The notes under the pieces are model-generated. The model saw only the letters and a list, made by a program, of their open reading frames with translations. It was not told where the DNA came from and searched no databases. Shown here piece after piece: positions 1 to 17,968 of a DNA stretch of 64,000 bases. A program made the translations under genes and the position numbers. Origin of the DNA: Gammaproteobacteria bacterium (GTDB lineage Bacteria > Pseudomonadota > Gammaproteobacteria > Eutrophobiales > Eutrophobiaceae); assembly GCA_965202915.1 (NCBI GenBank), contig OZ241847.1:2194242-2258241 (forward strand). Direction: 5' to 3'. Every line of letters starts with the position of its first letter. The first letter of the stretch is position 1.

Positions 1-947
1 GCTGACGACAAGCCTTTTGCCAGGGTCATGGTATCGGGCTGAAAGCCAAACATGGTGGCACCAAAATCCTTGCCCGTTCGGCCAAACGCACAAATAACCT
101 CATCGTCAAGAAACAGGATATTATTATCCCGCAAAAGTCGTTGAACGCGTGGAAAGTAATCCCTGGGAGGCACTATTACGCCACCCGCGCCATTGATTGG
201 TTCAGCAATAAACGCAGCGATTGTCTCCGCTCCTTCGGTGTCGATTAATTCCTCAAGTTGATTGATCAGACGATCACAAAAAGCACTTTCCGACTCGCCA
301 TTTAAACCATTTCTATAGTAGTGAGGAGCATCTATGCGAAGTATGCCCAGAGCGTCGAATGGGAGATTAAAATGAGCATGATTTGCGGCCAGCCCGGTCA
401 GCGAAGCGGCGGCGACGGTCAATCCATGATAAGCATTATGTCGTGAAATAATTTTTCTTTTCTCAGGCGTACCCAGTATATGATTATAGTAACGCACAAT
501 TTTAACAAGTGAATCATTGGCATCGCTTCCTGAGTTGCCAAAAAATACCTTCGCCCCGCTGATATTCACCATTTCACTCAGTTTGTCAGCTAAATCAATG
601 CCCTCTTGATGTGTTTTCCCGCCAAATAAATGACTATAAGACAGGCGTTCCAGTTGCCCGGAGATGGCCTCTACCAGTTCCTCATTCCCATAGCCCAATG
701 AGGCGCACCATAATCCGGCCAGACCTTCTATGTACTTTTTCCCCTTATCGTCATATACATATATGCCCTTACCCTTAGAAAACTTTATTTGCTCCGGTGC
801 GCATAAATTAGTGCTTGGATATAAAACACTGCTCATTATATTGCTTTCCTCATATGAACAAAACCAATCGCGACGTTCAGACCAGCTTTCCGGTTTATTT
901 ATCTGTATTAAATTATAGTCATTTAATTCTTTATAAACCATCGACAT
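1..947 (-). CDS. Class III (omega-type) PLP-dependent aminotransferase. The 3' end is truncated by the window edge. The start codon is the reverse complement of 945-947.
   Basis: Reverse-strand translation from the ATG at 947 gives MSMVYKELNDY...GLWCASLGYGNEELVEAISGQLERL...FIAEPINGAGGVIVPP...LFLDDEVICAFGRTGKDFG, which fits the class III aminotransferase fold. It is not in the ORF track because it runs off the window. GC is near the backbone value. Confidence 0.7.
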   Translation of the reverse strand, partial: MSMVYKELNDYNLIQINKPESWSERRDWFCSYEESNIMSSVLYPSTNLCAPEQIKFSKGKGIYVYDDKGKKYIEGLAGLWCASLGYGNEELVEAISGQLERLSYSHLFGGKTHQEGIDLADKLSEMVNISGAKVFFGNSGSDANDSLVKIVRYYNHILGTPEKRKIISRHNAYHGLTVAAASLTGLAANHAHFNLPFDALGILRIDAPHYYRNGLNGESESAFCDRLINQLEELIDTEGAETIAAFIAEPINGAGGVIVPPRDYFPRVQRLLRDNNILFLDDEVICAFGRTGKDFGATMFGFQPDTMTLAKGLSS

Positions 948-1124: not shown

Positions 1125-1259
1125 GGCATTTGCCACGCCACCCCCTATGCCTGGCGGCATACATACCGTTGACGCATCACCATGGGGTCATTAAAATATT
1201 CCCGTGTCGCACTACGGACTGGAATCTTCCCTCACACTTAATAATGAGAATCATCAAAA

Positions 1260-3146
1260 GTGAGTAGGCAATCAAATTTCAATGCCAGAAAACGCGGCAA
1301 CAGGAACCGACGCCGGCAAGCCAAATCGCAACCGGTTTCGCCAACAAGCTCAAAGCCATCAGCGACAATATCAGCAAGGGAAAGTATCCATATTACCCCG
1401 GCGCCGCACGGGCCGGAGTCACCCGTCTCCGCCGCGGCACCGGAAGCCGCCATCGCAACCGTATTCGCGCTGCCGGCACTATGCCTGTTAATCACCCTCA
1501 GTTACCTGCCCGCAACCTGGGCGGGGTTGGTGTGGGACGACGTCGTACTGACGATGGCCCAACCGTTGCAACATCTGTCCGGCCTATGGGATATCTGGTT
1601 CGCGCCCCGTTCCCTTTCCCAGTTTGAGGGACACTACTGGCCGCTTCTCTATACGTCTTTCTGGCTGGAGAATCGATTGTGGGGCGTCACCCCGGTCGGC
1701 TATCATATTGTCAACCTTGTACTACATGGCTTGGTCACAGTACTGCTATGGCGCCTGTTACTAAGGCTGGCCGTTCCCGGTGCCTGGTTTGCGGCGGCGG
1801 TGTTCGCGGTACATCCCCTGCACGTGGAGTCCGTGGCATGGATCATCGGACGCAAGGACGTGCTGGCCTCACTGTTTTATCTGGCCTGCGTGCTGAGTTA
1901 CCTGCATTTCATCGAGGCCCGGCGGCGCCGGTTTTATGCCGCGGCACTGGCACTGTTCATGGCGGGTCTGTTGTGCAAATCCATCCTGGTCACGCTGCCC
2001 GTATCGCTACTGATCTGGCACTGGTGGCAACAGGGGCGCGTGACGCCGGCCGACGTGCGCAGAGTGCTGCCGTTCCTGCTGCTGGGGCTGTGCGTCACGA
2101 TCGCCGACGTCTTGTTCTACAAGAGCAGGGATCCCACCGCCTTTGACTATTCAATCGTTGAACGGCTACTGATCGCGGCGCAGGCATTGTGGTTCTACCT
2201 GGGAAAACTGGTCTGGCCGACGCAACTGGCGGTCATTTACCCGCGCTGGGAGGTCGGCGTCGCCAACCCGCTGGCCTGGGGGTGTTTGATGGCCGCCTTC
2301 GCTGCGGTGGCGGCGCTGTGGTTCGGGCGCCACCGCATCGGTCGGGGGCCGCTGGCGGGTGCACTGTTCTTCGTGGTGACGCTGTCGCCGACGCTGGGCT
2401 TCGTGGACTATGGCTACATGCTGTACTCCTTTGTCGCCGACCGCTACCAATACTTGGCCGGGGCCGGTGTGATTGCAACACTGGCCGCAGCCGTAACCCT
2501 GGGCATGGGCAGACTGCCGGGCGCATACCGGCGCGGAGCGCAGGGCATGGCGGTGCTGCCGCTGGCCGCACTGGGCGTCATCACCTGGAACCAGGCGGGA
2601 ATCTACCGGGACAACTACACTTTTTACAGCCACGTCCTCTCTCTCAACCCGCAGGCCCGCTTCGCCCACCACAGTATCGGCCTGGAGTATCAAAAGCAGG
2701 GCCGCCACGAAGAGGCACTTGCCGCTTTTGAAACCGACTATCGTCTTGCCCCGGAGCAGCCGTCCCCACGGGTGCGCATGAGCAAGGCCCAGACCAGCAT
2801 CGGAACGTCGCTTGCGGCACTGGGCCGGATCCAGGAAGCGGAGGAGCACTTCCGGCGCGGGGTTGAGATCGCCCCGGACTTTCCGGGGGCCTACGATCAT
2901 CTGGGCGGGTTCCTGATCACGCACAAGCGTTACCGGGAGGCCCTCGAAGTTTTTCAAGCCGTCATCACCATAACGCCCGGCAATGCAAGGTTTCACGTCG
3001 GCCTGGGGGTCTCGCAGGCGGGCTTGGGACGGCTGGATGAGGCCTTGCAGAGCTACGAGCGGGCGCTGTTGATAGACCCCTTGCAGGAGCAGGCGCTAAG
3101 CAATCGCGCCAGCCTGTTGAAGTTCAGAGAGAGTGGCGGCGGATAG
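1260..3146 (+). CDS. Membrane glycosyltransferase-like protein with a DUF1736 domain and C-terminal TPR repeats (TMTC-like, paralog 1). A GTG start is predicted.
   Basis: 628 aa. It has a K/R-rich N-terminal tail, several TM segments with GHYWPLLYTSFWLE...GYHIVNLVLHGL...AVHPLHVESVAWIIGRKD (DUF1736-like), and TPR-like repeats in the C-terminal third. GC looks well above the backbone. Confidence 0.7.
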   Translation: MSRQSNFNARKRGNRNRRRQAKSQPVSPTSSKPSATISARESIHITPAPHGPESPVSAAAPEAAIATVFALPALCLLITLSYLPATWAGLVWDDVVLTMAQPLQHLSGLWDIWFAPRSLSQFEGHYWPLLYTSFWLENRLWGVTPVGYHIVNLVLHGLVTVLLWRLLLRLAVPGAWFAAAVFAVHPLHVESVAWIIGRKDVLASLFYLACVLSYLHFIEARRRRFYAAALALFMAGLLCKSILVTLPVSLLIWHWWQQGRVTPADVRRVLPFLLLGLCVTIADVLFYKSRDPTAFDYSIVERLLIAAQALWFYLGKLVWPTQLAVIYPRWEVGVANPLAWGCLMAAFAAVAALWFGRHRIGRGPLAGALFFVVTLSPTLGFVDYGYMLYSFVADRYQYLAGAGVIATLAAAVTLGMGRLPGAYRRGAQGMAVLPLAALGVITWNQAGIYRDNYTFYSHVLSLNPQARFAHHSIGLEYQKQGRHEEALAAFETDYRLAPEQPSPRVRMSKAQTSIGTSLAALGRIQEAEEHFRRGVEIAPDFPGAYDHLGGFLITHKRYREALEVFQAVITITPGNARFHVGLGVSQAGLGRLDEALQSYERALLIDPLQEQALSNRASLLKFRESGGG

Positions 3147-3391
3147 TGCTAAAGGGCTCAAGATAAATATATTCTGCGCGGCAAAGCGGGAACATCGGCC
3201 AATAACACCGAGGAAAGGCATCACACACCACAACCAGATCGTGGCCATTCACGCCGACCAAGAGCGAATGAACCGGCAGGTACTCACACCCCACCTCAAA
3301 AGACCAGTTGTCATTGAACGACATATTCAAGATTCCGATCTTACGATTCGGATGGTTTCGGTGATAATGGTGGGCAGGGGGGCAGGGTCAC

Positions 3392-3841
3392 TCATATTCT
3401 CTTTTGTGGCTTCTCCAGCATTTTTCCAAGCTGATTCAGTTTTCTGTTAAGAAGTTGCCCGTCTTTTAGCTGACATTCCCATATCCGCAATACTTTCCAT
3501 CCGTTGTTTTTAAGCGTCTTGTTTACCAGCCTGTCACGTTTCTTGTTGGCATATATTTTTTTAACCCAAAAATCTCTGTTGTTTTGGGGAACTTGGCCGT
3601 GCTTTGGGCAATCATGCCAGAAACATCCATCCATAAAGATCGCAAGCTTACTGTTTGGAAATACAATGTCTGGCTTGCCGAAAATCGGGTATCTGCGTCG
3701 CCATCCTATCACATGATTTCGCTTCAATATTTTAAGCAGTTTCCCTTCGGTTGATTTGTTTCCAGTAGAACGCACCTTACCCATAATCCATGAACGTTTT
3801 TCTTTTGAATAGACGTCAACCATTTTTCTTGACGTTGTCAA
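3392..3841 (-). CDS. vsr: Very-short-patch-repair endonuclease Vsr.
   Basis: 149 aa. Canonical Vsr motifs are present: RSWIMGKVRSTGNKSTE...RYPIFGKPDIVFPNSKLAIFMDGCFWHDCPKH. It overlaps the upstream GHKL gene by 26 nt. GC is low. Confidence 0.9.
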   Translation of the reverse strand: MTTSRKMVDVYSKEKRSWIMGKVRSTGNKSTEGKLLKILKRNHVIGWRRRYPIFGKPDIVFPNSKLAIFMDGCFWHDCPKHGQVPQNNRDFWVKKIYANKKRDRLVNKTLKNNGWKVLRIWECQLKDGQLLNRKLNQLGKMLEKPQKRI

Positions 3842-5477
3842 GCCTAAACAATAAAAATGAAATTAGACTTAGAATATCAAGGCAACTATTTTCTGGAAAT
3901 AATATATTTGATGTTGTCCTAGGTTCATGGTGCGTTGGATTTCTGAATGCTTGCACCAAACCAACTGAAAGAAATTGTTGACCCCTTTGCATGTTAAGTT
4001 CTGTGTCGTCGGAAAGGTCTGAAATTTGAAGTATTGGAAGCCTGGTTATTGTTGTTCTCCCTCTCTCGTTGTGTGATTCAAAACTAAAAGATTTATGCAT
4101 CAAATCAGTAGATGAATAATTAACACCAGCCTTATCTCTAATTTCCCTTTCATAAATCACCACTCCCTCTTTTGCAGCATCCAGATATCGGGCATTTTTA
4201 TAATCTTCGTACAGTCGATCCCTGATAAGCTGATGCAAATTTCTCCAATGATAATAAGGGTAAGAAGGTATAAGTTTTTTAAACTCGACAAACAGCCGAT
4301 TTGATTCAATAGTTTCTATTTCAGGAAAATCTTCAATCAGTTTTTCAGTAATAACCTCAATACTATTCTGAATTTCCTCCGGCATAGAATTTTTCCAGTC
4401 TTCCAGACCAATATCGCCAAGGCTGTTATCAACCTCGGCTATTTTCTTTTCTTTACGCTTTCTACGCCAATCCAATTGAACGAACTGGACACATTTCTCA
4501 AGATATGTATGAAGTTTGCTAGTTTGTAAATACCCCCAGTTTAGGTTTTGTCTGTTAGTGGAAATTACGTCCTCTGAAAAATCTTCTATAAAATCCACTT
4601 CCAACCATCCCGTCATATAAGAAAAGAAATGACTGGACGTGCTATCAGAAAATTGATAAGGAGATTGCACGAGTTTCCCCCGCGAAAACAAAGAAATACC
4701 CCTTGAATCAAATCTTGGTGCAATGGGCTTTTCAGGCGTAATGATCTTTCCCTGAATCTCAGACCGGTGCTCATAATCTGATTCTATGTTTGAAAAATCC
4801 TCGGGGAAATTCCAAGAAAATTCTTCACCAAATGCGGAGAAGTGCATATCATTGGACAACATTACCGGGTCTTCATCGTTACGCCTTACGGTAACGGAAA
4901 AATCTTCATCGAAAATAAAAAACCTTGCTATGCTGTTGGCAAGAAATTTTTCCGAAAAATCAGATTCTCTATTGATGTTTGTAAGTATTATTTGAGTTCC
5001 GGATTGACCATCTTCAACAATTTTGTCAATTACTTGCGGGATCATTAAATATTTCCCTCTCGTGGAGTTCATTAAATCATCCCAATCCATCGTAAAAATA
5101 TTTCTTTTTCCCTGTTGAACAGTGTTTACGGTAATTGTCCGAACAATCCCAAAGAATGAAAGCTTGCCCAAACCCTTTTTACCGATAACCTTCCTACCTC
5201 TCGGAGTCAACTCTTCTCCATCTTCTCTGCGGTTTCTCCCAATAACAAGAAATTTCTTGTCAATATCATTAAAAGACATTCCTGTTCCATTGTCCGTTAC
5301 AATAATTTCTTTTTCATTAATATCATTCAACTGCACTTCCACTTTTGTGGCATCTGCATCATATGCGTTGGCTAGCAGCTCACTTAAAACCGGAGGAAGA
5401 GTTGAGTACATACGAACTCCAAGGTGCTCTATAACTCTTGGGTCAAACTTCATCGTCAATTGATTAGATTCCAGCAT
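3816..5477 (-). CDS. GHKL (Bergerat-fold, HATPase_c) ATPase of the MORC/MutL-like type with no HisKA domain. It is a candidate restriction or repair-associated ATPase.
   Basis: 553 aa. Motif I is ELLANAYDADA, motif II is VTDNGTGMS and motif III is GKKGLGKLSFFG. There is no TM segment or phospho-acceptor region. It lies in an operon with dcm and vsr. Confidence 0.75.
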   Translation of the reverse strand: MLESNQLTMKFDPRVIEHLGVRMYSTLPPVLSELLANAYDADATKVEVQLNDINEKEIIVTDNGTGMSFNDIDKKFLVIGRNRREDGEELTPRGRKVIGKKGLGKLSFFGIVRTITVNTVQQGKRNIFTMDWDDLMNSTRGKYLMIPQVIDKIVEDGQSGTQIILTNINRESDFSEKFLANSIARFFIFDEDFSVTVRRNDEDPVMLSNDMHFSAFGEEFSWNFPEDFSNIESDYEHRSEIQGKIITPEKPIAPRFDSRGISLFSRGKLVQSPYQFSDSTSSHFFSYMTGWLEVDFIEDFSEDVISTNRQNLNWGYLQTSKLHTYLEKCVQFVQLDWRRKRKEKKIAEVDNSLGDIGLEDWKNSMPEEIQNSIEVITEKLIEDFPEIETIESNRLFVEFKKLIPSYPYYHWRNLHQLIRDRLYEDYKNARYLDAAKEGVVIYEREIRDKAGVNYSSTDLMHKSFSFESHNERGRTTITRLPILQISDLSDDTELNMQRGQQFLSVGLVQAFRNPTHHEPRTTSNILFPENSCLDILSLISFLLFRLDNVKKNG

Positions 5478-5489
5478 AATAAAACTATC

Positions 5490-6530
5490 TCAGCCCGAGT
5501 AAAAAGATTTCGCTATTCTGTAAGCAAGTTGCGGTGGCACTGCATTGCCTATTAGCTTGGCTGCGATCATTGAACTTTCACACGCAAAAACATAGTCTTC
5601 GCTGAACGTTTGTAGTGTTGCACCTTCTCTTAGGGACAATCCTCTGTTCTCCTCGGGATGGGCAAATCGACCATTTGAAATCCCGTTAAATCTCGTTGTA
5701 ATTGTTGAAGAGGGTTTATCCCACCTCAATCTCCCATAAACATCCCGAAAAGAATTATCTTTGCCTTTGTAGGTGTTCAATTGAAGCTCGGGGTCGTCTT
5801 TCCATGCGCTCCTTGTCCCGCCGTCTTTGGGTGTTAGCTTGAGCCGTCTCAAATTTTTTTCGGATAACGATGAAACTGTATCCATGAAATTATTTTCATC
5901 CTTATAACCGGATTGCAGAACGGGAAATCCATTATGGGTCCCTATAAATTCCTTCAATACGGATTCTTTCTCCGGTTGGGGAAGATCAATCGATTTTTTT
6001 ACCCTGGAAGCAATCAAGATAAATCTCTTTCTGCTTTGCGGAACTCCATAATACTTGGCATTGATAATATCCTCGACAATCTTATATTCTTTTTCAAGTT
6101 TCCGACAAAATTTGTCAAGCCCACTTTCCGCTTTGTTTCTTTTTATTCCCGGAACATTTTCTATAATTACATAACCCGGTTTGTAGTAACAGACAAAGCG
6201 CCAAAAATGATCAAGCAGTCCTCTGGTGTTCTCCGATGATCTTTTGTTCGTATTCAGGGTGGTCCAGTGCTGGCATGGGCTGCACCCTATAAAGATCAAA
6301 GAGTCGTCATTGCGTTTAATCCCACAATTTTTTTCCAGAAAAGTTCGTGGTGTGTCTTCTATATCTTTTAGAAAAAATTTTGTCCCCGGATGATTTGCCT
6401 CATATGTCTCTTTACAATCCTCATCCACATCTATCCCGGCAACAACCTTTACTCCGGCCATCTTTAACCCTTGGGACATGCCGCCGGCACCGCAAAAAAA
6501 ATCAACCGCTCTTAAGGATTTTTTTCTCAT
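5490..6530 (-). CDS. dcm: DNA (cytosine-5)-methyltransferase, Dcm-type.
   Basis: 346 aa. Motif I is DFFCGAGG, motif IV is GCSPCQHWT (PCQ), motif VI is ENV, motif VIII is QSRKRFILIA and motif X is GNAVPP. Confidence 0.9.
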   Translation of the reverse strand: MRKKSLRAVDFFCGAGGMSQGLKMAGVKVVAGIDVDEDCKETYEANHPGTKFFLKDIEDTPRTFLEKNCGIKRNDDSLIFIGCSPCQHWTTLNTNKRSSENTRGLLDHFWRFVCYYKPGYVIIENVPGIKRNKAESGLDKFCRKLEKEYKIVEDIINAKYYGVPQSRKRFILIASRVKKSIDLPQPEKESVLKEFIGTHNGFPVLQSGYKDENNFMDTVSSLSEKNLRRLKLTPKDGGTRSAWKDDPELQLNTYKGKDNSFRDVYGRLRWDKPSSTITTRFNGISNGRFAHPEENRGLSLREGATLQTFSEDYVFACESSMIAAKLIGNAVPPQLAYRIAKSFYSG

Positions 6531-8872
6531 TCGCCACCGCCCAAACTGGCTATTAATGTTACTATATGTGCCGCAACCGCGGACGAGGCAGCACGCACGA
6601 CAGAATCTTCGTCATATTCCTCCCGGCCATCGGAATTATCTTCGGAGTCACTGACAAGTCTCTTATACATTGCTAATGTGAGAATGCCCACCCCCACCCT
6701 GAAGCGGTGCCTGATGATCTCTCTCTTACCCTCATCTGATTCTTTGGAAATTAAGTACAAGAGATATTTATTGGCTTTGTTCACATATATGGTTAGCGTT
6801 TCTCCTCTGGACACATGACCGCCCGACTCTTCATTGTAGTTATGTTCATCCCAATATTCTTGCTCCACCCACTCAATATTCGGAAATTCCCGAGCCGGTC
6901 TCTCTTGATTGTTTGTGTCTGTTTCATCCCCGGGCGGGTTTCTTTGAGTTTCTTCCGCACTGGCAATTTTGATCATTACGTCAAAAGTCAGAGGATCTGT
7001 TCTTTCCGGGTTTGAGTCATCAAAGCCAAACTGAACGGCAATTTCATCTCCTACTTTTGCCCCCGCGGGAGTTATGACTTTTATTCGGAATTTTCCATTA
7101 CGCAGAGAACCCGAATGTGGCAATATATCAGGTGATGGGTGAATAAACTCCCCTCGGTTGGCATCTCTTATCAAATAATCATTTTGAGCGTCTGTTCTAC
7201 ATTCAATTCGTCTGTAAGAATTTATGGGAACACTCTTAACATTGCCCTCCTCCAAGTGCGTGGGAGTTAAATATGTGGGGAACAATTTCCCTTCATATTG
7301 ATCCTCACCTCCGGATGTTGCAATCTGACTGTCAACAATACTTCCAACATCAAATAGTTCTTGAAGATCCGGATTATCTTTAACAAGATTGGAAAGAAAT
7401 TCTTTATCGGTCTGCTCTTCTATTTGCTCGCTAATACGACGGTTTTTTATTTCTCTTGCATATTCCCTAAGTTCTCCGCTCCCGGCCAAGGCATCTATAA
7501 TAATTTTCTTTAGTTCTCTCGTGAGCCCTATGTCCGCCATTCTTTCCCTGTCCGATTTAAACACGGCGGCTCGCGCCGTATTATCCATGGCATTACAATC
7601 TATTTGAACAATTAAATGGTTTCTCAAATCATCCAGTCGCGCCTTCCGCAACAGACTGGCTCTGTCCGCAGATTGGGACTGACCGTTGATCGTGTAGAAC
7701 ATTCTGTATGGCTGTTTGCGCAAATAATCCTTCATTTTCTTCAACCCAAAATAAGATATTCGGATAGTCCCCAAATCCGAATTTTCAGAATTTTCAATTA
7801 CGTTTTCCAAGTCAACTTCGCTTTCCTCACTTCTTTCATCATCGGATTTGAGCACTATATTCATACCGGAAAAAGTTCTCGGTGCAATACCCTCCGCTCT
7901 AAGACCGCTCCTTGTGGGTTGAGCATCAAAATCATAAAGACGAACAGGCAAGGCACAATTTATAAGGTTGGTCGTAAGCGCATCATATAGTCCTATATCA
8001 ACCGCACGGGCACGAGGCCCTATATCGTATTCATATAACTTCACAATGCTGCCACCATTGATGACGACACCGATATCCTCTCTGCCAAAAGCCTTGATTT
8101 CATCGGTTTCAAAACAGGCAATTTCTCCGTCGGGACAAAAATACTCAACCACTGGCAAATCCTCTCCTTCTCGAACTCCTCTTACCCTTATCAAAGTCCA
8201 TCCCCATAGACCATCCGAACCGTAAGTGGTTCTTTTGGACAGAATAAACTTATACATCCCCGCCCTGATATCTGCTCGGGTACAAAAAGGTATGGATCCG
8301 GTGCTACCCATATTAAATCGACCTTGGACAAACGGAATGCCTTCCTTATTCTTTTCTCCAAGAGATAAAAAAGTTTTTCCAAAATCTGTATGATTTTGCC
8401 CCTCACCAAAATCAACTATCGTATAGTTTGGACAAATATCATTTCTCCTTCCTGTTCTCTTAATACCAATCAAAACACTTTTTTCAGCCAGATCAGTCCT
8501 TTGATTCGGGCTTAACAAAGCCAACCTGCCTTCTTGAACTTTGGGGAAAAAGTGTTTGACAGCCTCGCTCATATCTTGGGGAGCTGATTCACCATAAAAA
8601 TCTATTTGCTCTTCCTTTGCCCTGCGCATAAGGATTGCGTCAATGGAATTAATGATTAACTCTGCCAACGCACCGACTGGTTGGCTCGTTTGGACGCTCA
8701 CCCTGTCCCAATTTTTATCCGCGCCGCCGTAAGGCTTCCAATTTTCATCAGCGCTAAATTCAGGCTGGCTTTCCATGAACCGATTAACGTCGTCGGCTGA
8801 CAAAGCACCGAGAAACTTATTCGCTATTAACTTTGAAAGTGGGCTGTTGAAAAATTTTCTCGAATCATTCAT
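6527..8872 (-). CDS. Large protein with an N-terminal GHKL ATPase-like head and a ~550-aa uncharacterised C-terminal region. It is the first gene of the low-GC cassette.
   Basis: 781 aa. Bergerat motifs are AELIINSIDA (motif I), IVDFGEGQNH (motif II) and QGRFNMGSTGS (motif III). I recognised no motifs in the C-terminal region. It overlaps the dcm start by 4 nt, which suggests translational coupling. Confidence 0.6.
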   Translation of the reverse strand: MNDSRKFFNSPLSKLIANKFLGALSADDVNRFMESQPEFSADENWKPYGGADKNWDRVSVQTSQPVGALAELIINSIDAILMRRAKEEQIDFYGESAPQDMSEAVKHFFPKVQEGRLALLSPNQRTDLAEKSVLIGIKRTGRRNDICPNYTIVDFGEGQNHTDFGKTFLSLGEKNKEGIPFVQGRFNMGSTGSIPFCTRADIRAGMYKFILSKRTTYGSDGLWGWTLIRVRGVREGEDLPVVEYFCPDGEIACFETDEIKAFGREDIGVVINGGSIVKLYEYDIGPRARAVDIGLYDALTTNLINCALPVRLYDFDAQPTRSGLRAEGIAPRTFSGMNIVLKSDDERSEESEVDLENVIENSENSDLGTIRISYFGLKKMKDYLRKQPYRMFYTINGQSQSADRASLLRKARLDDLRNHLIVQIDCNAMDNTARAAVFKSDRERMADIGLTRELKKIIIDALAGSGELREYAREIKNRRISEQIEEQTDKEFLSNLVKDNPDLQELFDVGSIVDSQIATSGGEDQYEGKLFPTYLTPTHLEEGNVKSVPINSYRRIECRTDAQNDYLIRDANRGEFIHPSPDILPHSGSLRNGKFRIKVITPAGAKVGDEIAVQFGFDDSNPERTDPLTFDVMIKIASAEETQRNPPGDETDTNNQERPAREFPNIEWVEQEYWDEHNYNEESGGHVSRGETLTIYVNKANKYLLYLISKESDEGKREIIRHRFRVGVGILTLAMYKRLVSDSEDNSDGREEYDEDSVVRAASSAVAAHIVTLIASLGGGE

Positions 8873-8924
8873 TTATGAAAATTCACCTAGGTTTTGGTAT
8901 TTAATCAGTACATATCCATAACCG

Positions 8925-9420
8925 TTAAAAATCATTCCCGGAACCAAATGGCCACCCACTTGCGGAATAGGCCCGGATGTCATCATCGCCGGCATATTTG
9001 AACCAAAAAACCGCCGCCGGCACAACCGAACATTTGCCAAGCCGGCAGTTTTCCACCACCACCTTGAGCATGGCGTATTCGCCGTTGACTTGGCAGGCGA
9101 AAGCCAGCATATCGAATGCTACTTGATACGCCAAATGATGTCGAGTTTAATATATCCAGTTTGACCATTACGCATGTCGGTGATGTCGAGATCTTCACGC
9201 AGTGCTTTATCGCCATTGGTTAGGACCATTTTGTAACTGTATTTGTCGCCGCCCGCTAGAATCGCCGGACATACGGACTCCCCGAACCAAGAATGATAAC
9301 ATTAGCTCCCTCTACAATCCAGGTATTTCCCAACGCCTGTCCTTCCAGAACACCTATCGACCAAACCATCGGTTACTGACAGAACAACATCTACGGACGT
9401 GGCGACAGCGGTAATTGGGT
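8925..9420 (-). pseudogene. Degraded ORF fragments (frameshifted remnants) at the boundary between the low-GC cassette and the second TMTC-like gene.
   Basis: Reverse-strand reading gives ...ILAGGDKYSYKMVLTNGDKALREDLDITDMRNGQTGYIKLDII* and then, in another frame, ...KVVVENCRLGKCSVVPAAVFWFKYAGDDD... The fragments are short and out of frame, and I recognised no family. Confidence 0.3.
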
Positions 9421-9788
9421 TATCATGGAATCATCCGATTCACACCATCTCCAGAATATACGGGCGGCAGCATCGGACACTTCCTTGGGTATGTGTGCTA
9501 CCCGCACCTCCAATTAACACGGCCGAGTTGAGAATGTGAACCAAGTATTTCGTTGGTAATTACCCCACATCCTTCGACTTATCAGGTAATGAGACAAGAC
9601 TCGGCAAGGTTACGGGACTTCCCCGGTCACCGTCTGTGCACAATCTTATAATGCTTTTCTGCGAAAATTATGAGGATTGTGTAAAATCCTCTCTTGTATA
9701 GGATTAGGATACCCTCTTGCCACACTTCAGACTGAAATCTGCCTTCTCCTCAAGAAAGGAGTGGCGCAAGGTGAACAGATAATCGGAT

Positions 9789-11648
9789 ATGGCGGCCCGA
9801 AAAAACCGAAACAAGGCCCGGCGCAGGCAAATGAAGCTGCAAACCACCGCCAGGCGCCCCGGCACGGTGCGTAGCCGGACCGGCCCCGTACCCATCAAAT
9901 CGTCGCCGGGCGGGTTGCAATCGCTTTTTTCCGGGCTCAAGCGGAGCGTACTTCACGGGGACCCGATCCCACCCGCACTCGCGGCCACGGCGCTGTGGCT
10001 GCTGATACTCATCAGTTACCTGCCCGCGACCTGGGCCGGTTTCGTGTGGGACGACTTCGCGTTCACGGAGGCCGAACAGGTACTGCGCCCATCCGGTCTT
10101 TGGGATATCTGGTTCAAGCCGCACTCGCTGCAGAATGAAGGCCATTACTGGCCGCTCCTCTATACGACCTTCTGGCTGGAGCACAAGTTGTGGGGGCTGG
10201 ACCCGACCGGTTATCATATCGTCAACCTGCTGCTGCACGGGTTGACCACGCTGTTGTTGTGGCGCCTGCTGCTGCGGCTGGCCGTGCCGGGCGCCTGGTT
10301 CGCGGCGGCGGTGTTCGCCGTGCACCCCCTGCACGTGGAGTCGGTGGCATGGGTTATCGGACGCAAGGACGTGCTGGCGGGGCTGTTCTCCGTGGCCTGC
10401 GTGCTGAGCTATCTGCGTTTCGTGGAAGCTGGTCGCCGCGCACGCTATACGCACTACTTTCGGGCACTGGCGCTGTTCGTGGCGGGACTGTTGAGCAAAT
10501 CCATTGTCGTCACCCTGCCGGTGTCGCTGTTGATCTGGCACTGGTGGAAGCAGGGTCGCGTAGCCGTGACCGACGCACTGAGGACGCTGCCGTTCCTGCT
10601 GCTGGGGCTCGGCATCACGATCATCGACTGGTGGTACTACAAGGACCGGGAAGAGATTGTCCTGGAGGACTACTCGTTGATCGAGCAGACGCTGAACGCG
10701 GCGCACGCGCTGTGGTTCTACGTTGGCAAACTGGTCTGGCCGGCGGAACTGGCAGTCATCTACCCGCGCTGGGAAATCAACGTCAGCGAGCCACTGGCCT
10801 GGGCGTATCTGGTCACCGCCGTCGCGGTGGTGTGGCTGCTGTGGTTCTACCGCGACCGCATTGGCCGGGGGCCGCTGGCGGGGGTGCTGTTCTTCGTGGT
10901 GACGCTATCACCGACCCTGGGGTTCGTCGAGTACGGTTTCATGCAGTTCTCGCTGGTCGCCGACCGCTATCAGTACCTGGCCGGGATCGGAGTGACGGCG
11001 GGCCTCGTGGCCGCCGCGGCCCGCGTTGCAGGCCGGCTGTCGGGTACGCCGGCGAGGGGCGTACAGGCCGCGGCGGTGCTGCTGCTGGTCGTGCTGGGAA
11101 CCATCAGTTGGAACCAGGCGGGCATCTACCGCGACAACTTCACGTTCTACCAGCATATCATCGCTCTCAACCCGCAGGCCAGGAACGCCTGGTACAACCT
11201 TGGCAGAGAGTATTCCATGCAGGGCCGCACGCAGGATGCGCTGGCCGCGTATCTCACCGCCGGCGAGCAGCGCCCCGACCACGTCTGGGCGCATATCGGC
11301 GCCGGGCAGATGGCCGCGGAACTGGGAAGGCTCGCCGAGGCGGAGATGTACCTGCAACGCGCGCTTGCGGTTGACCCGAGTTTCCCGGAAGCCCTCAACA
11401 ATATGGGAGCGCTGCGGCTCAGACAAAAACGCTACAGCGAGGCGCTCGAACTCTTTGAGACCCTGATTGAGATGCAGCCCGAGTACGCCAAGGTTTATTC
11501 TGGCATAGGCGTGGCCCTGGCCGGACTCAGGCGGTTTGAAGAGGCGTTGCGGAGTTTTGACCGCGCGCTTGAACTGGACCCGTCACTGGAAGAGGCGCGG
11601 GTCAACCGCGAGCACGTATTGCGGAACTCCAAAAGCGAGAGCAGGTAA
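9789..11648 (+). CDS. Membrane glycosyltransferase-like protein with a DUF1736 domain and C-terminal TPR repeats (TMTC-like, paralog 2).
   Basis: 619 aa. It has the same architecture as the 1260..3146 product, about 60-70% identical across the TM core (GHYWPLLYTTFWLE...AVHPLHVESVAWVIGRKD), with a diverged N-tail and TPR region. Its stop overlaps the start of the next gene. Confidence 0.75.
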   Translation: MAARKNRNKARRRQMKLQTTARRPGTVRSRTGPVPIKSSPGGLQSLFSGLKRSVLHGDPIPPALAATALWLLILISYLPATWAGFVWDDFAFTEAEQVLRPSGLWDIWFKPHSLQNEGHYWPLLYTTFWLEHKLWGLDPTGYHIVNLLLHGLTTLLLWRLLLRLAVPGAWFAAAVFAVHPLHVESVAWVIGRKDVLAGLFSVACVLSYLRFVEAGRRARYTHYFRALALFVAGLLSKSIVVTLPVSLLIWHWWKQGRVAVTDALRTLPFLLLGLGITIIDWWYYKDREEIVLEDYSLIEQTLNAAHALWFYVGKLVWPAELAVIYPRWEINVSEPLAWAYLVTAVAVVWLLWFYRDRIGRGPLAGVLFFVVTLSPTLGFVEYGFMQFSLVADRYQYLAGIGVTAGLVAAAARVAGRLSGTPARGVQAAAVLLLVVLGTISWNQAGIYRDNFTFYQHIIALNPQARNAWYNLGREYSMQGRTQDALAAYLTAGEQRPDHVWAHIGAGQMAAELGRLAEAEMYLQRALAVDPSFPEALNNMGALRLRQKRYSEALELFETLIEMQPEYAKVYSGIGVALAGLRRFEEALRSFDRALELDPSLEEARVNREHVLRNSKSESR

Positions 11649-13414
11649 TGGCGAAACGGAAAAACCCCCGCCCCGCCACTCGCCGGCGCCGACAACCTGG
11701 GGCAGCGGCGCCGACAACGGCAACGATGCCCTGGCGGTGGCGCGCGGGCGACGCCTTATTTGCCGCCGACCGCCCGCGGCTCGCCGGCGACGGCGAACAC
11801 TGGACGTATTTCTGGCCGCTGCTGGGCGCGGCCCTGCTGCTGCGCGCTGCCATCGCCCTGTGGGGTGACTTTGTGCTGCATCCGGACGAGATCATGCAAT
11901 ACCTGGAGCCGGCCCACTATGTGGCCTTCGGCAATGGCGTCCTCTACTGGGAATATCTCCACGGCGCACGCAGCTGGCTGATCCCGGGCGCGATCGCCGG
12001 CGTGCTGAAGGCGCTGGATGGCTTGGGGCTGGCGCAGCCGGCCATCTATATCGCCGTGGTGAAACTGTTGTTCTGCCTGCTGTCGCTGTCGGTGCCGTGG
12101 GCCATGTACCGCTTCACGCAAATCACGGTCAACGAGCGATCTGCTCGGCTGGCGCTGATCTTCGGCTGCTTCTGGTACGAACTGGCGGCGCTGGCGCACA
12201 AACCCTTCACCGAATTGTTCAGCACTTCCATTTTCATGGTCGTGCTCGCTCTGTCCGTGGGCAGGGAAGCGGAAAGACCCGCCAGGCTGTTTGCCATCGG
12301 CCTGCTGGCGGCACTCAGCGGTGCGGTGCGCCTGCAGTACGCACCCGTGGCGTTGCTGCTGTTGTTGCTGCGCTCGGTATCCCTGCGCAACGGCGTTGCC
12401 GGGCTGGTGTCGTTATGGGCGGGCGCCGGGCTGCTGACGCTGCTAGTGGGTATCTTCGAATGGCAGACCTGGGGGGCGCCGTTTCATTCCTACCTGAGCA
12501 ACTTCTTTATCAATCTCGCCATTGACCCCGCACGCGCCGGTGAATCAAGCCGATGGCTTCTGTTGGGGCAGTTGGCCGCGGCCAGCGGCGGCATGGCACT
12601 GATCGCCTTTGCCGCTGCGCTGCCCAGGGGGCGGCGGCATCTGCTCATCCTGGTGACGAGCGCGGTGATACTCGTCCTGCACCTGCTCCCGGAGCATCGC
12701 GAATACCGCTTCATCCACGTCCTGATCCCGTGCTGGTTGATGCTGCTGGCGGCCTGGATCGCGCGCTGGGGCGACGGATTGTCCGGCGAACGAGGCCGGA
12801 TATCCGCACTGGCGCGGCGCTGGGGCGCGGCGGCGGTGCTGGCCTTCGGCATCCCAGCCCTACTCAATGCGTTTCCCTGGCAGAGCCGGGTGTACCAGAG
12901 TTTCTCCGTGGAAAAACCGGTGTACTACTTGCGCAATCAGGACCCGATATTTGAGATCATGTCTTTCCTGGCCGCCCAGGACGACGTGCACGGAGCTCTC
13001 TACCATACCCGGGAATACAACGCATACTTCAGCACTGGCGGCTATTACTACCTGCACCACGACGTCCCTTTCTATACCGCGCAAGACACCTGGCAAACCA
13101 TCAGGGAACGGCACCCGGCGGTGCCTCAGGAATCGTTGGTTTCCCATATCGTGACCGAGGCCGACGGCCCCGCCATCCAGGGGTTCGAACGACTGCTCCG
13201 GCGTGGAAACCTGGCGCTGTGGCGGCGCCGGGACAACGACAGTGCAGTCCCCCGCTGGCGCGAGCACGTGATCAAGGTAAGCCATGCGGACCTAAACGAC
13301 CTGGTGAGCAGAACCATGCGGCGCCTGAACGCCTCTTCCATGCTCGACCTTTTCGTAGCCGATGACTTGTACTGGGTGGAGGCGCCACCGTTGTTTGAGT
13401 CGGCGGATGAATAA
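11648..13414 (+). CDS. GT22-like (PIG-B/ALG9/ALG12-type, Glyco_transf_22) membrane mannosyltransferase homologue.
   Basis: 588 aa. The GT22 signature LHPDEIMQYLEPAHYVAFGNG (HPDE..Q..E) sits near the N-terminus. The protein is multi-TM and GC-rich. Its start overlaps the upstream stop (TAATG). Confidence 0.6.
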   Translation: MAKRKNPRPATRRRRQPGAAAPTTATMPWRWRAGDALFAADRPRLAGDGEHWTYFWPLLGAALLLRAAIALWGDFVLHPDEIMQYLEPAHYVAFGNGVLYWEYLHGARSWLIPGAIAGVLKALDGLGLAQPAIYIAVVKLLFCLLSLSVPWAMYRFTQITVNERSARLALIFGCFWYELAALAHKPFTELFSTSIFMVVLALSVGREAERPARLFAIGLLAALSGAVRLQYAPVALLLLLLRSVSLRNGVAGLVSLWAGAGLLTLLVGIFEWQTWGAPFHSYLSNFFINLAIDPARAGESSRWLLLGQLAAASGGMALIAFAAALPRGRRHLLILVTSAVILVLHLLPEHREYRFIHVLIPCWLMLLAAWIARWGDGLSGERGRISALARRWGAAAVLAFGIPALLNAFPWQSRVYQSFSVEKPVYYLRNQDPIFEIMSFLAAQDDVHGALYHTREYNAYFSTGGYYYLHHDVPFYTAQDTWQTIRERHPAVPQESLVSHIVTEADGPAIQGFERLLRRGNLALWRRRDNDSAVPRWREHVIKVSHADLNDLVSRTMRRLNASSMLDLFVADDLYWVEAPPLFESADE

Positions 13415-13654
13415 AAGTTTGTGGTCACGATCTTACACGGGCAGCCCGATGCCGATACCGTTCGCAGGTGTGGCCCACCGGGCCAGGTGGTCGGCGATGC
13501 TTTCCGACCCCATGGAGCCCCGCGCGGCCCCGGAATAGTCTTCGCAACCGCTCATTGGTTTGCCGGCGACAATATGGCACACTCTCCGGCAGTTTGATTG
13601 TAATGTTGATCCTGTCTTTTGATTTGCTTTTTCATTGCTTTAGGAGGCCCGCCC

Positions 13655-14404
13655 ATGTCCAAAAACCTAAGCGACTTTTCAACCCTGAGCCTGGACTGCT
13701 ATGGCACACTCATTGACTGGGAGACTGGCATTTGGGACGCGCTACAGCCCCTGATCCGGCGATCCGGACGAGACGACGTCGTGCGCCGCCAAGGACTCGA
13801 GGCGTTCGCCCGATTTGAAAATGCCCGCGAAATGGAGACACCGGAGCTGCCCTACCCGGAGATTTTGCAACGAACCCACGCCGACGTGGCGGCCTACCTG
13901 GGAATGACCACCTCGGTGGAACTGGACCGCGAGTTTGCCTGCTCCATCGCCCACTGGCCGGCCTTTGCCGACACCGCCGACGCGCTGCGCCGCCTGCGGA
14001 AGCACTATAAACTGGTGATCCTGTCCAACGTCGACCGGGCCGGATTCGCCGCCTCGGCGACCAAGCTCGGCGTCGCCTTTGACGCCGCCTACACAGCGGA
14101 AGATATCCGCTCCTATAAACCCGCCGCCGCCAACTTCCACTACCTGATCGAACATCTCCAGGCCGATCTCGGCGTTAAGCGCGAAGCCATCCTGCACACC
14201 GCCCAGAGCCTGTTCCACGACCACGCACCGGCCAACGCCTTCGACCTCGCCAACGTCTGGATCGACCGCCAGGGGCTGTCGCATAGCGACAACTGGGGCG
14301 CCACCGCCAGGCTCGACAAGCGCCCCGACGTGGACTTCCTGTTCCCGACCCTGGCGGCGATGGCGGACGCAGTGGAAGGGGAGGTCGAGCCGCCCCAGGG
14401 TTGA
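13655..14404 (+). CDS. HAD-superfamily hydrolase, L-2-haloacid dehalogenase type II-like.
   Basis: LSLDCYGTLIDWE (DxYGT motif), ILSNVD and SYKP are present. The start was taken at MSKNLSDF with AGGAGG 8 nt upstream. The ORF track starts earlier, at 13619. Confidence 0.7.
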   Translation: MSKNLSDFSTLSLDCYGTLIDWETGIWDALQPLIRRSGRDDVVRRQGLEAFARFENAREMETPELPYPEILQRTHADVAAYLGMTTSVELDREFACSIAHWPAFADTADALRRLRKHYKLVILSNVDRAGFAASATKLGVAFDAAYTAEDIRSYKPAAANFHYLIEHLQADLGVKREAILHTAQSLFHDHAPANAFDLANVWIDRQGLSHSDNWGATARLDKRPDVDFLFPTLAAMADAVEGEVEPPQG

Positions 14405-14712
14405 AAGCGGTCATGCACTGTACCAGTTAAGGATATAAATCCAGTGGTGGGTCTGGTACCTGGCGTCGTTCCTGATTCCGCACTGATGGCGGGGCGGGGA
14501 GCAAGTGCACAGCAGGGGCCAGGACTGAACACTTCGGCAGTGGGTGCTGCCTGGCGTCTTGCTGGTTGTACAAACGCGCCGGTGCCACGTTGCTGGCGGT
14601 GCTGCTTCCCACCAATTGCGCCGCCGGGACATTTTTAATGAACTATGTCCACAAAAAATTCACTTGTCCGAGCGAAAGCTTTGTAGTGCCCGCCCTGGTG
14701 CGCGAGATTCAC

Positions 14713-15498
14713 TTACCCGTTCGCCATTGTGGAGACGGTCGTGTATCTGCGCGCGAGTGCCGCACGAGAGACACGGTGTTCGTCGACCAGTGGCGGGATT
14801 CCCCGATGTTGCCGTATTACTTGAGCGGTCAACTCATTTTCTGCTGCGGCCTGGGACACTACACCAGACTGCCCGGTGACCTTGTATAGGGTGATATCCT
14901 CGCGCACTTGCTCCAACAGATAGAATTCCATCCGGGCATGGTTGAAAGCGAAGCGATCTCCTGACCGGTTGTTGAACACCAGCTTGGAGAGCGCAATGTT
15001 GACGACTACCAGCGCGGCCAAAATTGTCAGTATCCAGTGATTAGACAGCCCTAGCCTGCAAACCACGGCAAACCCCTTGAGATGGGTCGGATTTCGACCC
15101 TGTGCGTAAACCAGCGTCAGCAGCAGAATCAAAAGAAAAAGCAGCACGTGTAAGGAATACACCTTCTGGATAATGGACTGCGACCAGAATAGCTTGGAAA
15201 ACCCGTAGGCGAAGCCGGCCATGTAGCCGCCGAGGCGGCCGCCCGTCAGGTGGACCGCCACCAGATATAGCACCGCGCAGGCCGCCGCGCCCAAAAGGGC
15301 GCTCAATATGTTGCCGGCCAGCGGGCGCGAAAGCAACGGCAGGTGGGCGAACGGGAAGCACAACATGCTGTACAGCGGGTAACCCGGCGGGTGCACTGGT
15401 TGGCCGTAGTGGCAAATCAGGTTGAAGATCGCTGCGTCTTCGTAGGTGACGACACGGGGCATCGTGGCCAGATATACGATAAAAAGCCCGGTAAACAC
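14713..15498 (-). CDS. DUF2723 (TMEM260-like) membrane protein. Only the N-terminal part is present, and the gene is probably a truncated pseudogene.
   Basis: VTYEDAAIF...HPPGYPLYSM matches the DUF2723 signature. Family members are usually longer than 500 aa, but this ORF ends at 261 aa and its tail looks non-native. Confidence 0.45.
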   Translation of the reverse strand: MFTGLFIVYLATMPRVVTYEDAAIFNLICHYGQPVHPPGYPLYSMLCFPFAHLPLLSRPLAGNILSALLGAAACAVLYLVAVHLTGGRLGGYMAGFAYGFSKLFWSQSIIQKVYSLHVLLFLLILLLTLVYAQGRNPTHLKGFAVVCRLGLSNHWILTILAALVVVNIALSKLVFNNRSGDRFAFNHARMEFYLLEQVREDITLYKVTGQSGVVSQAAAENELTAQVIRQHRGIPPLVDEHRVSRAALARRYTTVSTMANG

Positions 15499-15656
15499 GG
15501 CCAGAGGGGGGGCAGCCCTGTCCTTCGATGTTATCGCGTAATGAAAACAAGCTAACCGTAGCGGCGTTGCGCACCCTGTCTTGGGACTGGGGGCGCACCT
15601 TACCCGAACGGGTACGGTTTTTTCTTTTACTCTTTCTGCGCATGGTGCCTACCCAA

Positions 15657-17304: not shown

Positions 17305-17593
17305 TTGGCGTTAAGCCCTGGGTTGGCAGCTAACGATTGCGGGTTTTATTCTGTCGCCATGGGGTCGCTTTGTTGGACAATATATTGCATTAATCTCAAC
17401 AAGTTAATCGCAACCAAAGAATCATTTGGCAACGTATTATCATAATAATTATCTTTCCATTCATAGGGTTATTGTACCGATTTACTTGGCCTGGCTGTAT
17501 AAGCTCAGAAACATATTGCGGGCAATATCCTCGGCGTATATCATGTCATCGTGTGTGACGTTCCGCTATCGCAAGACAACCAGGATAAACAAT

Positions 17594-17935: not shown

Positions 17936-17968
17936 CCTGGCCCGTCCCGGCAATAAAGATGCGGCTTT

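Follow-up and report, generated by a model that had tools for sequence, protein, structure and literature searches.

Evidence for a foreign, mobile and partly decayed module of GT-C glycosyltransferase genes in a gammaproteobacterial chromosome

Results

Gene content and composition of the locus

The DNA analysed is a stretch of 64,000 nucleotides (hereafter the window) from a Gammaproteobacteria bacterium of the family Eutrophobiaceae (assembly GCA_965202915.1, contig OZ241847.1, positions 2,194,242 to 2,258,241 of the forward strand). Near its left end lies a group of genes for membrane glycosyltransferases of the GT-C fold. Three are intact: TPR_A and TPR_B, paralogues in which a GT-C transmembrane (TM) domain is followed by tetratricopeptide repeats (TPR), and a GT22 enzyme resembling the eukaryotic mannosyltransferases ALG9, ALG12 and PIG-B. 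Downstream are a haloacid dehalogenase-superfamily (HAD) gene and the wrecks of TMEM260-like and PMT_2 genes, and between TPR_A and TPR_B sits a restriction-modification (R-M) cassette (Table 1). The remaining window is core chromosome, with genes for UvrA, NusA, IF-2, DnaB, RadA, MaeB and SdhA. By its UvrA homologues the host belongs among marine gammaproteobacteria.

A preliminary description of this DNA, made from its letters and open reading frames (ORFs), had treated positions 1240-15620 as one strongly GC-enriched block. We compared GC content with that of 1-kb backbone windows at 20-64 kb of the window (mean 0.511, standard deviation 0.029). Enrichment was confirmed for two sub-blocks, 1260-3148 (GC 0.621, z=3.8) and 9768-15620 (GC 0.623, z=3.9), and was lost over the interval as a whole, which averages only 0.530 (z=0.7). 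Segment 3149-9767 is AT-rich (GC 0.423, z=-3.0), as is 15621-17400 (z=-4.2). The GC content at third codon positions (GC3) follows the same pattern: 0.75 in TPR_A, 0.82 in TPR_B, 0.80 in GT22, 0.79 in HAD and 0.75 in the TMEM260 remnant; 0.43-0.67 in sixteen backbone genes (median about 0.56); and 0.34-0.43 in the four insert genes. Rather than a single block, the interval combines at least three layers of differing composition. The first layer is a GC-rich glycosylation module (TPR_A, TPR_B, GT22, HAD and the TMEM260-like and PMT_2 wrecks) from a cluster that circulates in high-GC sponge symbionts, the second a very recent 6.6 kb AT-rich insertion, a probable type II R-M cassette, and the third a 1.8 kb AT-rich segment at the right border. 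Native genes with a GC content skewed by their being membrane proteins were considered as an explanation of the first layer and ruled out, since it is third codon positions that carry the excess and foreign clusters match the DNA at 75-77% identity.

Table 1. Features in and around the glycosyltransferase module; positions are those of the window
Feature	Positions	Strand	Evidence and remarks
Class-III aminotransferase	1..947	-	PF00202 193 bits; GC3 0.425; start candidates 947/941; runs off window start
TPR_A, 628 aa, GT-C transmembrane domain + C-terminal TPR	1260..3146	+	TPR families; PMT_2 24 bits, below threshold
AT-rich R-M insertion, 6.6 kb	3149..9767	.	blastn junctions vs L002/L003
Vsr very-short-patch repair endonuclease	3392..3841	-	PF03852 59 bits; PADLOC Vsr
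GHKL ATPase (HATPase_c_3) + Hypoth_Ymh, candidate BbrUII/HgiDII-like restriction enzyme	3816..5477	-	PF13589 80 bits, PF09509 69 bits
C5 cytosine DNA methyltransferase (Dcm type)	5490..6530	-	PF00145 177.5 bits; PADLOC MTase_II E 2e-85
781-aa protein	6527..8872	-	overlaps Dcm start by 4 nt; conserved in L012
TPR_B, 619 aa, GT-C transmembrane domain + TPR, TPR_A paralogue	9789..11648	+
GT22 (ALG9/ALG12/PIG-B-like) GT-C glycosyltransferase, 588 aa	11648..13414	+	PF03901 91.6 bits
HAD-superfamily hydrolase, type II haloacid dehalogenase-like	13619..14404	+	PF00702 41 bits; TIGR01428 119.8 bits vs cutoff 125.4
Inverted PMT/PMT_2 remnant	14533..14886	+	aa ~400-520 of 585-591 aa protein; tblastn with L002/L003 PMT_2, E 2e-22
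TMEM260-like (DUF2723) pseudogene remnant	14872..15504	-	PF11028; tblastn/blastn vs full-length L002/L003 genes
AT-rich right-border segment	15621..17400	.	GC 0.391; 31-42% GC; third compositional layer
Possible transposase C-terminal remnant, 20-residue trace	ORF 15976-16266		rve_3 17 bits, E 0.005, sub-threshold
ORF, 324 aa	16330-17304		Lipase_GDSL (GDSL/SGNH) 17 bits, sub-threshold; GC3 0.335
HIT-family gene	17426..17935	+	80% aa identity to L007; NF007965; then syntenic znuBCA...UvrA-PfkB

TPR_A and TPR_B are TMTC-like

The two TPR proteins are 58% identical, and each consists of a polytopic domain of about 440 residues with TPR repeats behind it. Pfam places TPR_1/TPR_2 and related families at residues ~450-615 of both paralogues, after the last TM helix, and the helical repeats of the predicted TPR structure have pLDDT values (predicted local distance difference test) above 95. 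The N-terminal membrane domain shows the GT-C fold, within which Pfam recognises only PMT_2, mostly below threshold (24 bits, in one paralogue). A GT-C fold, conserved acidic motifs in the first loop and a K/R-rich N-terminus are common to all three intact enzymes of the module.

Residues invariant in the TPR-GT-C family are D88-D89, E117/H119/W121/P122, H143/N146/H150, F176-A-x-H-P-x-H-x-E184, R192-K-D194, K237-S/T242, Y325-P-x-W328 and D392-R-x-x-Y396. They map onto motifs M1, M2, M3, M4 and M7 of the metazoan TMTC proteins, for which M1 is defined as DD, M2 as SHKSYRP, M3 as RxD, M4 as KE[T/Q]xxT and M5 as the DW within DUF1736 (PMC7801869). When the TM-domain profile was aligned by hhalign with the N-terminus of human TMTC3, the probability was 98.4% (E 4.3e-15, 28% identity over 172 columns); the TMTC3 sequence used was checked at five motif positions only, where it agrees with Table 4 of PMC7801869 (DD31-32, SHKSYRP66-72, R143/E145, KEQxxT188-193 and DW303-304). 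The alignment pairs DD of TMTC3 with DD of the family, SHKSYRP with EGHYWP, GRAE with GRKD, so that R143/E145 corresponds to RKD in the window proteins, and CKEQGIT with SKSIVVT; FAVHPxHxE is also aligned. M2 and M4 match only in part. These alignments suggest that TPR_A and TPR_B are homologous to TMTC-type enzymes and would work like them, though they are not DUF1736 proteins by Pfam's definition. A search of PDB sequences with the TM-domain profile (hmmsearch) gave no match at E<=10, and so no TMTC structure or close solved relative.

The acidic loops and the TPR domain would be periplasmic, given GT-C topology, the positive-inside rule and the analogy with TMTC proteins and the Pseudomonas aeruginosa enzyme TfpW. 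The N-termini of TPR_A, TPR_B and GT22 (1260-1330, 9789-9850 and 11648-11700) carry a similar K/R-rich tail, for example MAARKNRNKARRRQ and MAKRKNPRPATRRRRQ, which is kept in the consensus of both families; the tail may be a cytoplasmic docking or topology signal.

Searched by itself against public data clustered at 50% identity, the TM domain retrieved 69,263 representative relatives at E<=1e-3, of which 38,239 remained at E<=1e-10 and 5,344 at E<=1e-30. Most of the listed homologues are nameless and the few names all read just 'tetratricopeptide repeat protein'. The literature searched held no characterised member among these relatives.

The GT22 enzyme

The preliminary description had read a GT22-like enzyme from an HPDE..Q..E signature, and this identification is well founded. 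The PF03901 match (E 8e-26, cutoff 23.8 bits) covers profile positions 6-351 of 414, and all 120 listed homologues carry the same family. Within the signature H78, P79, D80, Q84 and E87 are invariant and E81 is conserved in at least 90%; H350, E352, Y353, R354 and F355 of a second motif, HKEYRF, are conserved as well, and both motif regions align to ALG9 and ALG12. A phmmer search of PDB with the single sequence gave nothing useful, and a profile search was needed, by which the GT22 family found ALG12 (E 8e-4) and ALG9 (E 2.6e-3). The AlphaFold2 model (pLDDT 85.1, predicted TM-score 0.88) has as its top two Foldseek matches in PDB human ALG9 (9s6s_A, E 2.9e-7, TM-scores 0.56/0.60) and chicken ALG12 (9s6t_A, E 6e-7, 0.58/0.70), after which oligosaccharyltransferase and ArnT rank next.

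The GT22 start overlaps the TPR_B stop (TAATG). The same end-to-start layout of a TPR-GT-C gene and a GT22 gene is found in the related loci L002, L004 and L011 described below, and the pair occurs together on many other contigs. To our knowledge, all characterised GT22 enzymes (CAZy family GT22) use dolichyl-phosphate-mannose (Dol-P-Man) as donor. Family membership would give the enzyme studied here a polyprenyl-phosphate-mannose donor and a mannose-terminated acceptor.

Related loci in sponge-associated bacteria

Relatives of the module were found by scanning species-representative genomes with the GT22 protein. Orthologues 63-67% identical were present in four chromosome-level metagenome-assembled genomes (MAGs) of sponge-associated lineages, labelled as Ca. 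Porifericomitaceae (OZ243038), Ca. Poriferihabitaceae (OZ253546 and OZ243042) and Nitrospirales (OZ243044); individual loci are given L numbers here. The cluster proteins are 63-72% identical to those of MAG loci L002-L006, and at the nucleotide level the window cluster is 75-77% identical to L002, L003, L005 and L006, with the same gene order. By blastn, window 1482-3148 is collinear with L002 8252-9933 (75%) and window 9768-13414 with L002 10001-13644 (76.5%); TPR_A is the orthologue of a 594-aa gene of L002 (70% identity in amino acids, 75% in nucleotides). Because the TPR_A and TPR_B orthology pairs are preserved, the tandem pair must have moved as a unit. The relatives' loci are 58-64% GC throughout, so the composition of the cluster is native there.

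The full cluster, as found in L002/L006 and L003, has two to four PMT_2-TPR genes, GT22, a full-length TMEM260-like gene (747-792 aa), a PMT/PMT_2 gene (585-591 aa) and a GT2 gene with a GtrA_DPMS_TM domain. The last (369 aa, present in L002, L003 and L004) has the architecture of a polyprenyl-phosphate-sugar synthase, and in L004 it follows GT22. Upstream of the TPR genes, and divergent from them, L004, L005 and L011 encode a bifunctional ManC (GDP-mannose pyrophosphorylase/phosphomannose isomerase). Loci of Gemmatimonadota-type sponge MAGs have GtrA, one or two copies of GT22 and up to five tandem PMT_2-TPR paralogues, and the TPR-GT-C and GT22 families share many contigs. In one further locus, L014 (from a 2.99 Mb genome), three consecutive proteins of 523-543 aa are encoded at 14546-19612 between PMT_2-TPR genes; they have no precomputed Pfam match, nor did the two that were rescanned gain one, and such systems may include them as additional components or acceptors.

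L006 is 95% identical to L003 in nucleotides over the cluster genes only, and 98.4% identical to L005 over only the 5.4 kb TPR_A-TPR_B-GT22 core. The flanks of the three loci are unrelated, and their MAGs are labelled Nitrospirales, Ca. Porifericomitaceae and Ca. Poriferihabitaceae. Identity of 95-98% between differently labelled MAGs, together with unrelated flanks, argues that the cluster is mobile. If the labels are right, transfer has been recent and has crossed orders and phyla; either way the module stands in different contexts.

The nearest backbone relative found was L007 (UvrA 80% identical, GC 0.513). Its gene order agrees with that of the window from HIT through znuBCA, SSB, MFS and UvrA as far as PfkB, with identities of 66-82%. 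In the roughly 2.4 kb visible on the left side of HIT, L007 has a ResIII/TnsA-like gene instead of the cluster. Synteny of the cluster across relatives had been named as grounds for abandoning the island interpretation; this relative is without it at the site.

A second strain and the case for selection

A second assembly, made independently from a different sample (L012, ERZ25068762), matches window positions 1648-14448 with 99.08% identity, insert and HAD gene included. Homology ends at window 14448 (L012 12803), just after HAD. Past that point L012 has NadB-rpoE-rseA-rseB-degP at a GC content of about 0.50-0.52, and the window instead has the TMEM260/PMT_2 wrecks, AT-rich DNA and HIT-znuBCA. 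The divergence means that the right flank is structurally unstable, the break reflecting either a rearrangement hotspot or a misassembly in the window or in L012. The L005 cluster also abuts rseB/rpoE; RseB, RpoE and DegP of L005 are only 34, 57 and 42% identical to their L012 counterparts. The cluster proteins, at 63-72%, are thus closer to those of the foreign lineages than these chromosomal proteins are, which speaks for a foreign origin of the cluster.

The sharp compositional steps, and the disagreement of the two assemblies after 14448, could be taken as signs of a chimera, in which assembly or binning joined GC-rich segments of a co-occurring high-GC symbiont to this chromosome. This we consider extremely improbable, as L012 reproduces TPR_A, the AT-rich insert, TPR_B, GT22 and HAD and then runs into backbone-like DNA; moreover the closest high-GC clusters are only 75-77% identical, and no co-resident source sequence is known.

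Codon-level comparison with L012 gave ratios of nonsynonymous to synonymous divergence (pN/pS) of 0.17 for TPR_A, 0.18 for TPR_B, 0.22 for GT22 and 0.11 for HAD, with synonymous divergence (pS) of 3-8% in these four genes and no stop codons in either strain. From the low ratios it follows that the glycosyltransferase genes are maintained by purifying selection. One might nevertheless suppose that the genes left from the decayed island no longer function and persist as a relic: half of the original gene set has been destroyed, the operon has been split by the R-M cassette, and the window has no donor synthase or ManC. Such a relic is very unlikely in view of the ratios just given, the full-length ORFs, which match their orthologues, and the intact catalytic motifs. 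With TPR_A, TPR_B, GT22 and HAD under purifying selection, the donor synthase must be encoded elsewhere.

The restriction-modification insert

TPR_A and TPR_B are adjacent genes in the relatives, about 70 bp apart, and segment 3149-9767 is therefore a 6.6 kb insertion into their spacer. The preliminary description missed this insert, with its Vsr, GHKL (BbrUII/HgiDII-like), Dcm and 781-aa proteins, as it did the inverted PMT_2 remnant. The GHKL/Hypoth_Ymh protein is matched by the PADLOC REase_II model (E 4e-32) and by NF050001 at 224 bits, below the BbrUII/HgiDII cutoff of 550. Searches of Pfam, NCBIfam, PADLOC and PDB with the 781-aa protein all came back empty, and nothing relates it detectably to the GHKL protein beside it; probably it acts as a so far unrecognised partner in the R-M or defence cassette. 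A GHKL N-box-like 'ELIINSIDA' was seen by eye near residue 70 of this protein.

Between the window and L012 (1502-8120) the insert has zero differences across 4001-9000 and one synonymous change in Vsr, whereas its flanks differ by 1-2%. A near-identical insert between diverged flanks must be much younger than the divergence of those flanks. Either the cassette was recently acquired, or it passed between strains not long ago through recombination in the flanking TPR genes. Target-site duplications and inverted repeats were sought around the insert and the island, with chance-level matches only. In L003 the same spacer, about 70 bp long in L002/L006, holds another selfish insert (6623-8022), with an HNH_2 endonuclease gene on the minus strand at 6745-7503; the TPR_A/TPR_B spacer seems to be a repeated landing place.

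The HAD gene, the remnants and the borders

The HAD gene has donor-like GC3 and the strongest constraint of the island, and it is present in L012 and has no counterpart in the L002-L006 clusters. A role as sugar-phosphate phosphatase of the pathway was rejected, the gene being missing from all relatives' clusters and its best model being haloacid dehalogenase type II. The hydrolase listed by the preliminary description is present, but it belongs to the cluster in no relative and nothing connects it with glycosylation; it is more likely an independent dehalogenase-like cargo.

The TMEM260-like fragment with DUF2723 reported earlier is likewise real, and is a pseudogene remnant. Its ORF (14713-15498) scores 63.6 bits with PF11028 (cutoff 24.2), and it keeps only residues 59-247 and 423-497 of a 747-792 aa protein, having lost an internal segment and its 3' end; what remains of the ORF consists of out-of-frame or inverted PMT_2 DNA. 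By blastn, 15016-15529 is the 5' part of the TMEM260-like gene and 14936-15016 a part about 620 bp further on, which marks the internal deletion, and 14594-14873 matches the PMT_2 gene in inverted orientation (L002 19780-19495). To judge from its sequence, a remnant with about 35% of the length cannot be active. It is absent from the 99%-identical strain L012.

On the left, the class-III aminotransferase is a backbone gene lying just outside the island, as had been noted. At the left compositional border (1077-1118), about 150 bp upstream of TPR_A, the 16-nt unit AACATTGGCTGAACGC is repeated perfectly in tandem (x2.6). On the right, the HIT gene sets, by synteny, the outer limit of the island, as the first backbone gene shared in order with the closest relative; the contents of 15621-17400 have no counterpart in L007. 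A tblastn search with the IS3 transposase of L003 found no match in the window.

Discussion

Origin and mobility of the module

We conclude with good confidence that the locus is a foreign, mobile and partly decayed GT-C module that was split by an R-M insertion. Acquisition from a high-GC donor, as first proposed, is upheld by GC3 values of about 0.8 against about 0.56 in the backbone, by the identity and shared gene order with high-GC sponge-symbiont MAGs, and by the L007 synteny, which stops at HIT. The copy studied here, trimmed and interrupted, is a natural experiment on which genes are kept: the TPR-GT-C pair and GT22.

A periplasmic glycosylation pathway

Several GT-C families dependent on lipid-linked sugars do occur together at the locus, as the preliminary description said, and the best-supported reading of the module is a polyprenyl-phosphate-mannose-dependent periplasmic glycosylation system. 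On this reading, GDP-mannose from ManC would be converted by the GT2-GtrA synthase to polyprenyl-phosphate-mannose and flipped across the membrane. The TMTC-like enzymes would dock acceptors through their periplasmic TPR domains and transfer a first mannose, with Ser/Thr residues of envelope or surface proteins as the likeliest targets. The translationally coupled GT22 would then add one more mannose to the mannose-bearing acceptor, as ALG9, ALG12 and PIG-B do. As an explanation of the whole we favour this with moderate confidence. Mannose is probably the sugar; it is a reasonable choice because ManC and the synthase resembling dolichol-phosphate-mannose synthase (DPMS) flank the cluster in relatives. 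That the acceptor is a protein we propose more tentatively, from the TPR domains and by analogy with the TMTC enzymes and TfpW. A candidate is seen in L002, where a 930-aa autotransporter with He_PIG (Ig-like) and PKD-like domains is encoded on the minus strand at 13832-16624, between GT22 and the TMEM260-like gene. By analogy it may serve as an acceptor, since Ig-like domains are what TMTC and TMEM260 mannosylate in animals.

A number of points weigh against this reading. The sugar and the acceptor are inferred and are fixed by no direct sequence feature. The window, in its 64 kb, has no homologue of ManC or of the GT2-GtrA synthase, nor of the autotransporter. The polyprenyl-phosphate-mannose synthase that was to be sought nearby was thus not found in the window, and of the dedicated mannosylation pathway first proposed, mannose stands as reasonable, while the pathway is incomplete here, with its TMEM260-like and PMT_2 genes wrecked, and the protein acceptor is an extrapolation. 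The TPR proteins had been called DUF1736+TPR proteins; two GT-C+TPR paralogues with TMTC motifs M1-M4 are indeed present, but PF08409 (DUF1736) has no match at E<=10 in either, and DUF1736 is also absent from the precomputed Pfam lists of 120 listed homologues and from 10 more distant family members. The hhalign match to TMTC3 covers only the first ~180 residues and ends before the DUF1736 region; the metal-binding DW of TMTC proteins (M5) is without a clear counterpart, and S replaces the E of the KE motif here. As to mobility, no integrase, tRNA or att site bounds the island (the nearest tRNA is at 22076), flanking repeats are lacking, the only transposase signal is the sub-threshold rve_3 trace, and the taxonomic labels of the MAGs were taken as given. 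Eukaryotic GT22 enzymes act on lipid-linked glycans, not proteins. Bacterial systems of the GT-C/GtrA/GtrB type usually decorate glycans (PMC11194591).

The last two points also favour an alternative with the same anatomy and origin, a three-component periplasmic system of the Gtr/Arn type whose acceptor is a glycan or lipid, such as lipopolysaccharide (LPS) core, O-antigen, lipid A or exopolysaccharide (EPS), and whose TPR domain binds either the glycan or a partner in polysaccharide assembly. Three-component systems for glycan modification classically combine GT2-GtrA with a GT-C enzyme (PMC11194591), and no candidate acceptor protein is conserved: L003 lacks the L002 autotransporter, even though the DNA on either side of it is 95% identical. 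Even so, a C-terminal TPR domain on a GT-C enzyme is a signature of the protein-directed TMTC1-4, TMEM260 and TfpW (PMC10214176; bioRxiv 10.1101/2020.04.19.049825), the specific motifs M1-M4 of TMTC proteins are conserved, and no LPS or EPS assembly genes adjoin the cluster at any locus examined. We therefore think a glycan or lipid acceptor, with such a role for the TPR domain, somewhat unlikely.

Comparison with known systems

Metazoan TMTC1-4 (CAZy GT105) are Dol-P-Man-dependent cadherin O-mannosyltransferases. Like them, the window proteins have an N-terminal multi-pass GT-C domain followed by lumenal or periplasmic TPR, with several paralogues side by side, and share the first-loop DD, H-x-Y-x-P (M2), FAVHPxHxE, RxD/E (M3) and Kxxxx-T (M4) in the same order and spacing (PMC7801869). 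Unlike them, they are bacterial and have 4-5 TPRs in place of 8-10, besides the differences at M4 and M5 already noted. TfpW, which carries out pilin O-arabinofuranosylation, glycosylates protein with a polyprenyl-phosphate sugar and is, by its description, also alike: a bacterial GT-C enzyme of the inner membrane that has about 11 TM helices and a DDx motif and ends in a periplasmic TPR domain (bioRxiv 10.1101/2020.04.19.049825). TfpW differs in adjoining its substrate gene pilA and genes for D-arabinofuranose biosynthesis, whereas here there is no pilin gene and the relatives have ManC and DPMS-like neighbours.

For the GT22 enzyme, the well-above-threshold family match, the two motifs and the best structural matches point to ALG9, ALG12, PIG-B and PIG-Z. 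The bacterial protein differs in its extra periplasmic alpha/beta C-terminal domain of about 180 residues and its coupling to a TPR-GT-C gene, and its acceptor cannot be Dol-PP-GlcNAc2Man(n) or glycosylphosphatidylinositol (GPI). In an evolutionary survey the GT-C enzymes of the ALG pathway in the endoplasmic reticulum lumen 'appear to be unique to eukaryotes' (PMC4973528). Actinobacterial Pmt (GT39), which works with Ppm1 in bacterial protein O-mannosylation, is without TPR and works alone; here up to four GT-C families stand together, in a Gram-negative host. GtrABC and ArnC-ArnT are like the relatives' loci in combining a GT2 polyprenyl-phosphate-sugar synthase, a GtrA-type module and a GT-C transferase, and are often horizontally mobile (PMC11194591). 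They differ in having one GT-C enzyme without TPR and in modifying O-antigen or lipid A, in contrast to the TPR-bearing TMTC-like, TMEM260-like and GT22 lineages found here. Metazoan TMEM260 (PF11028), the IPT-domain O-mannosyltransferase, shares the N-terminal domain recognised by PF11028 with the window remnant and the relatives' full-length proteins, the window gene differing in its truncation; 'distant homologs in bacteria' of TMEM260 have been noted (PMC10214176). The families, then, are known, and their bacterial homologues have been mentioned in passing. For the gene set, its context of mannose genes and its mobility among sponge symbionts, no prior description was found in the literature searched.

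Significance

The TPR-GT-C family is large and unstudied, and many 'TPR protein' annotations in symbionts probably stand for membrane glycosyltransferases. O-mannosylation of proteins by TMTC and TMEM260 enzymes counts as a speciality of animals. Bacterial proteins of TMTC, TMEM260 and ALG architecture travel as a compact set beside mannose-activation genes, move between unrelated sponge symbionts and stay under purifying selection in a host of lower GC content. It is an improbable but consequential idea that sponge-associated bacteria share a mobile and complete toolkit for protein O-mannosylation, with PMT/POMT-like, TMTC-like and TMEM260-like enzymes, a GT22 extender, a DPMS-like synthase and ManC. 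If that were true, adhesin-like surface proteins, the L002 He_PIG/PKD autotransporter being one candidate acceptor, would carry a coat of animal-type O-mannose glycans that serves recognition or immune evasion within the host. The window would then hold a recently transferred, trimmed-down copy that still serves part of the function, and the gene pool from which it came could bear on the origin of the metazoan TMTC and TMEM260 enzymes.

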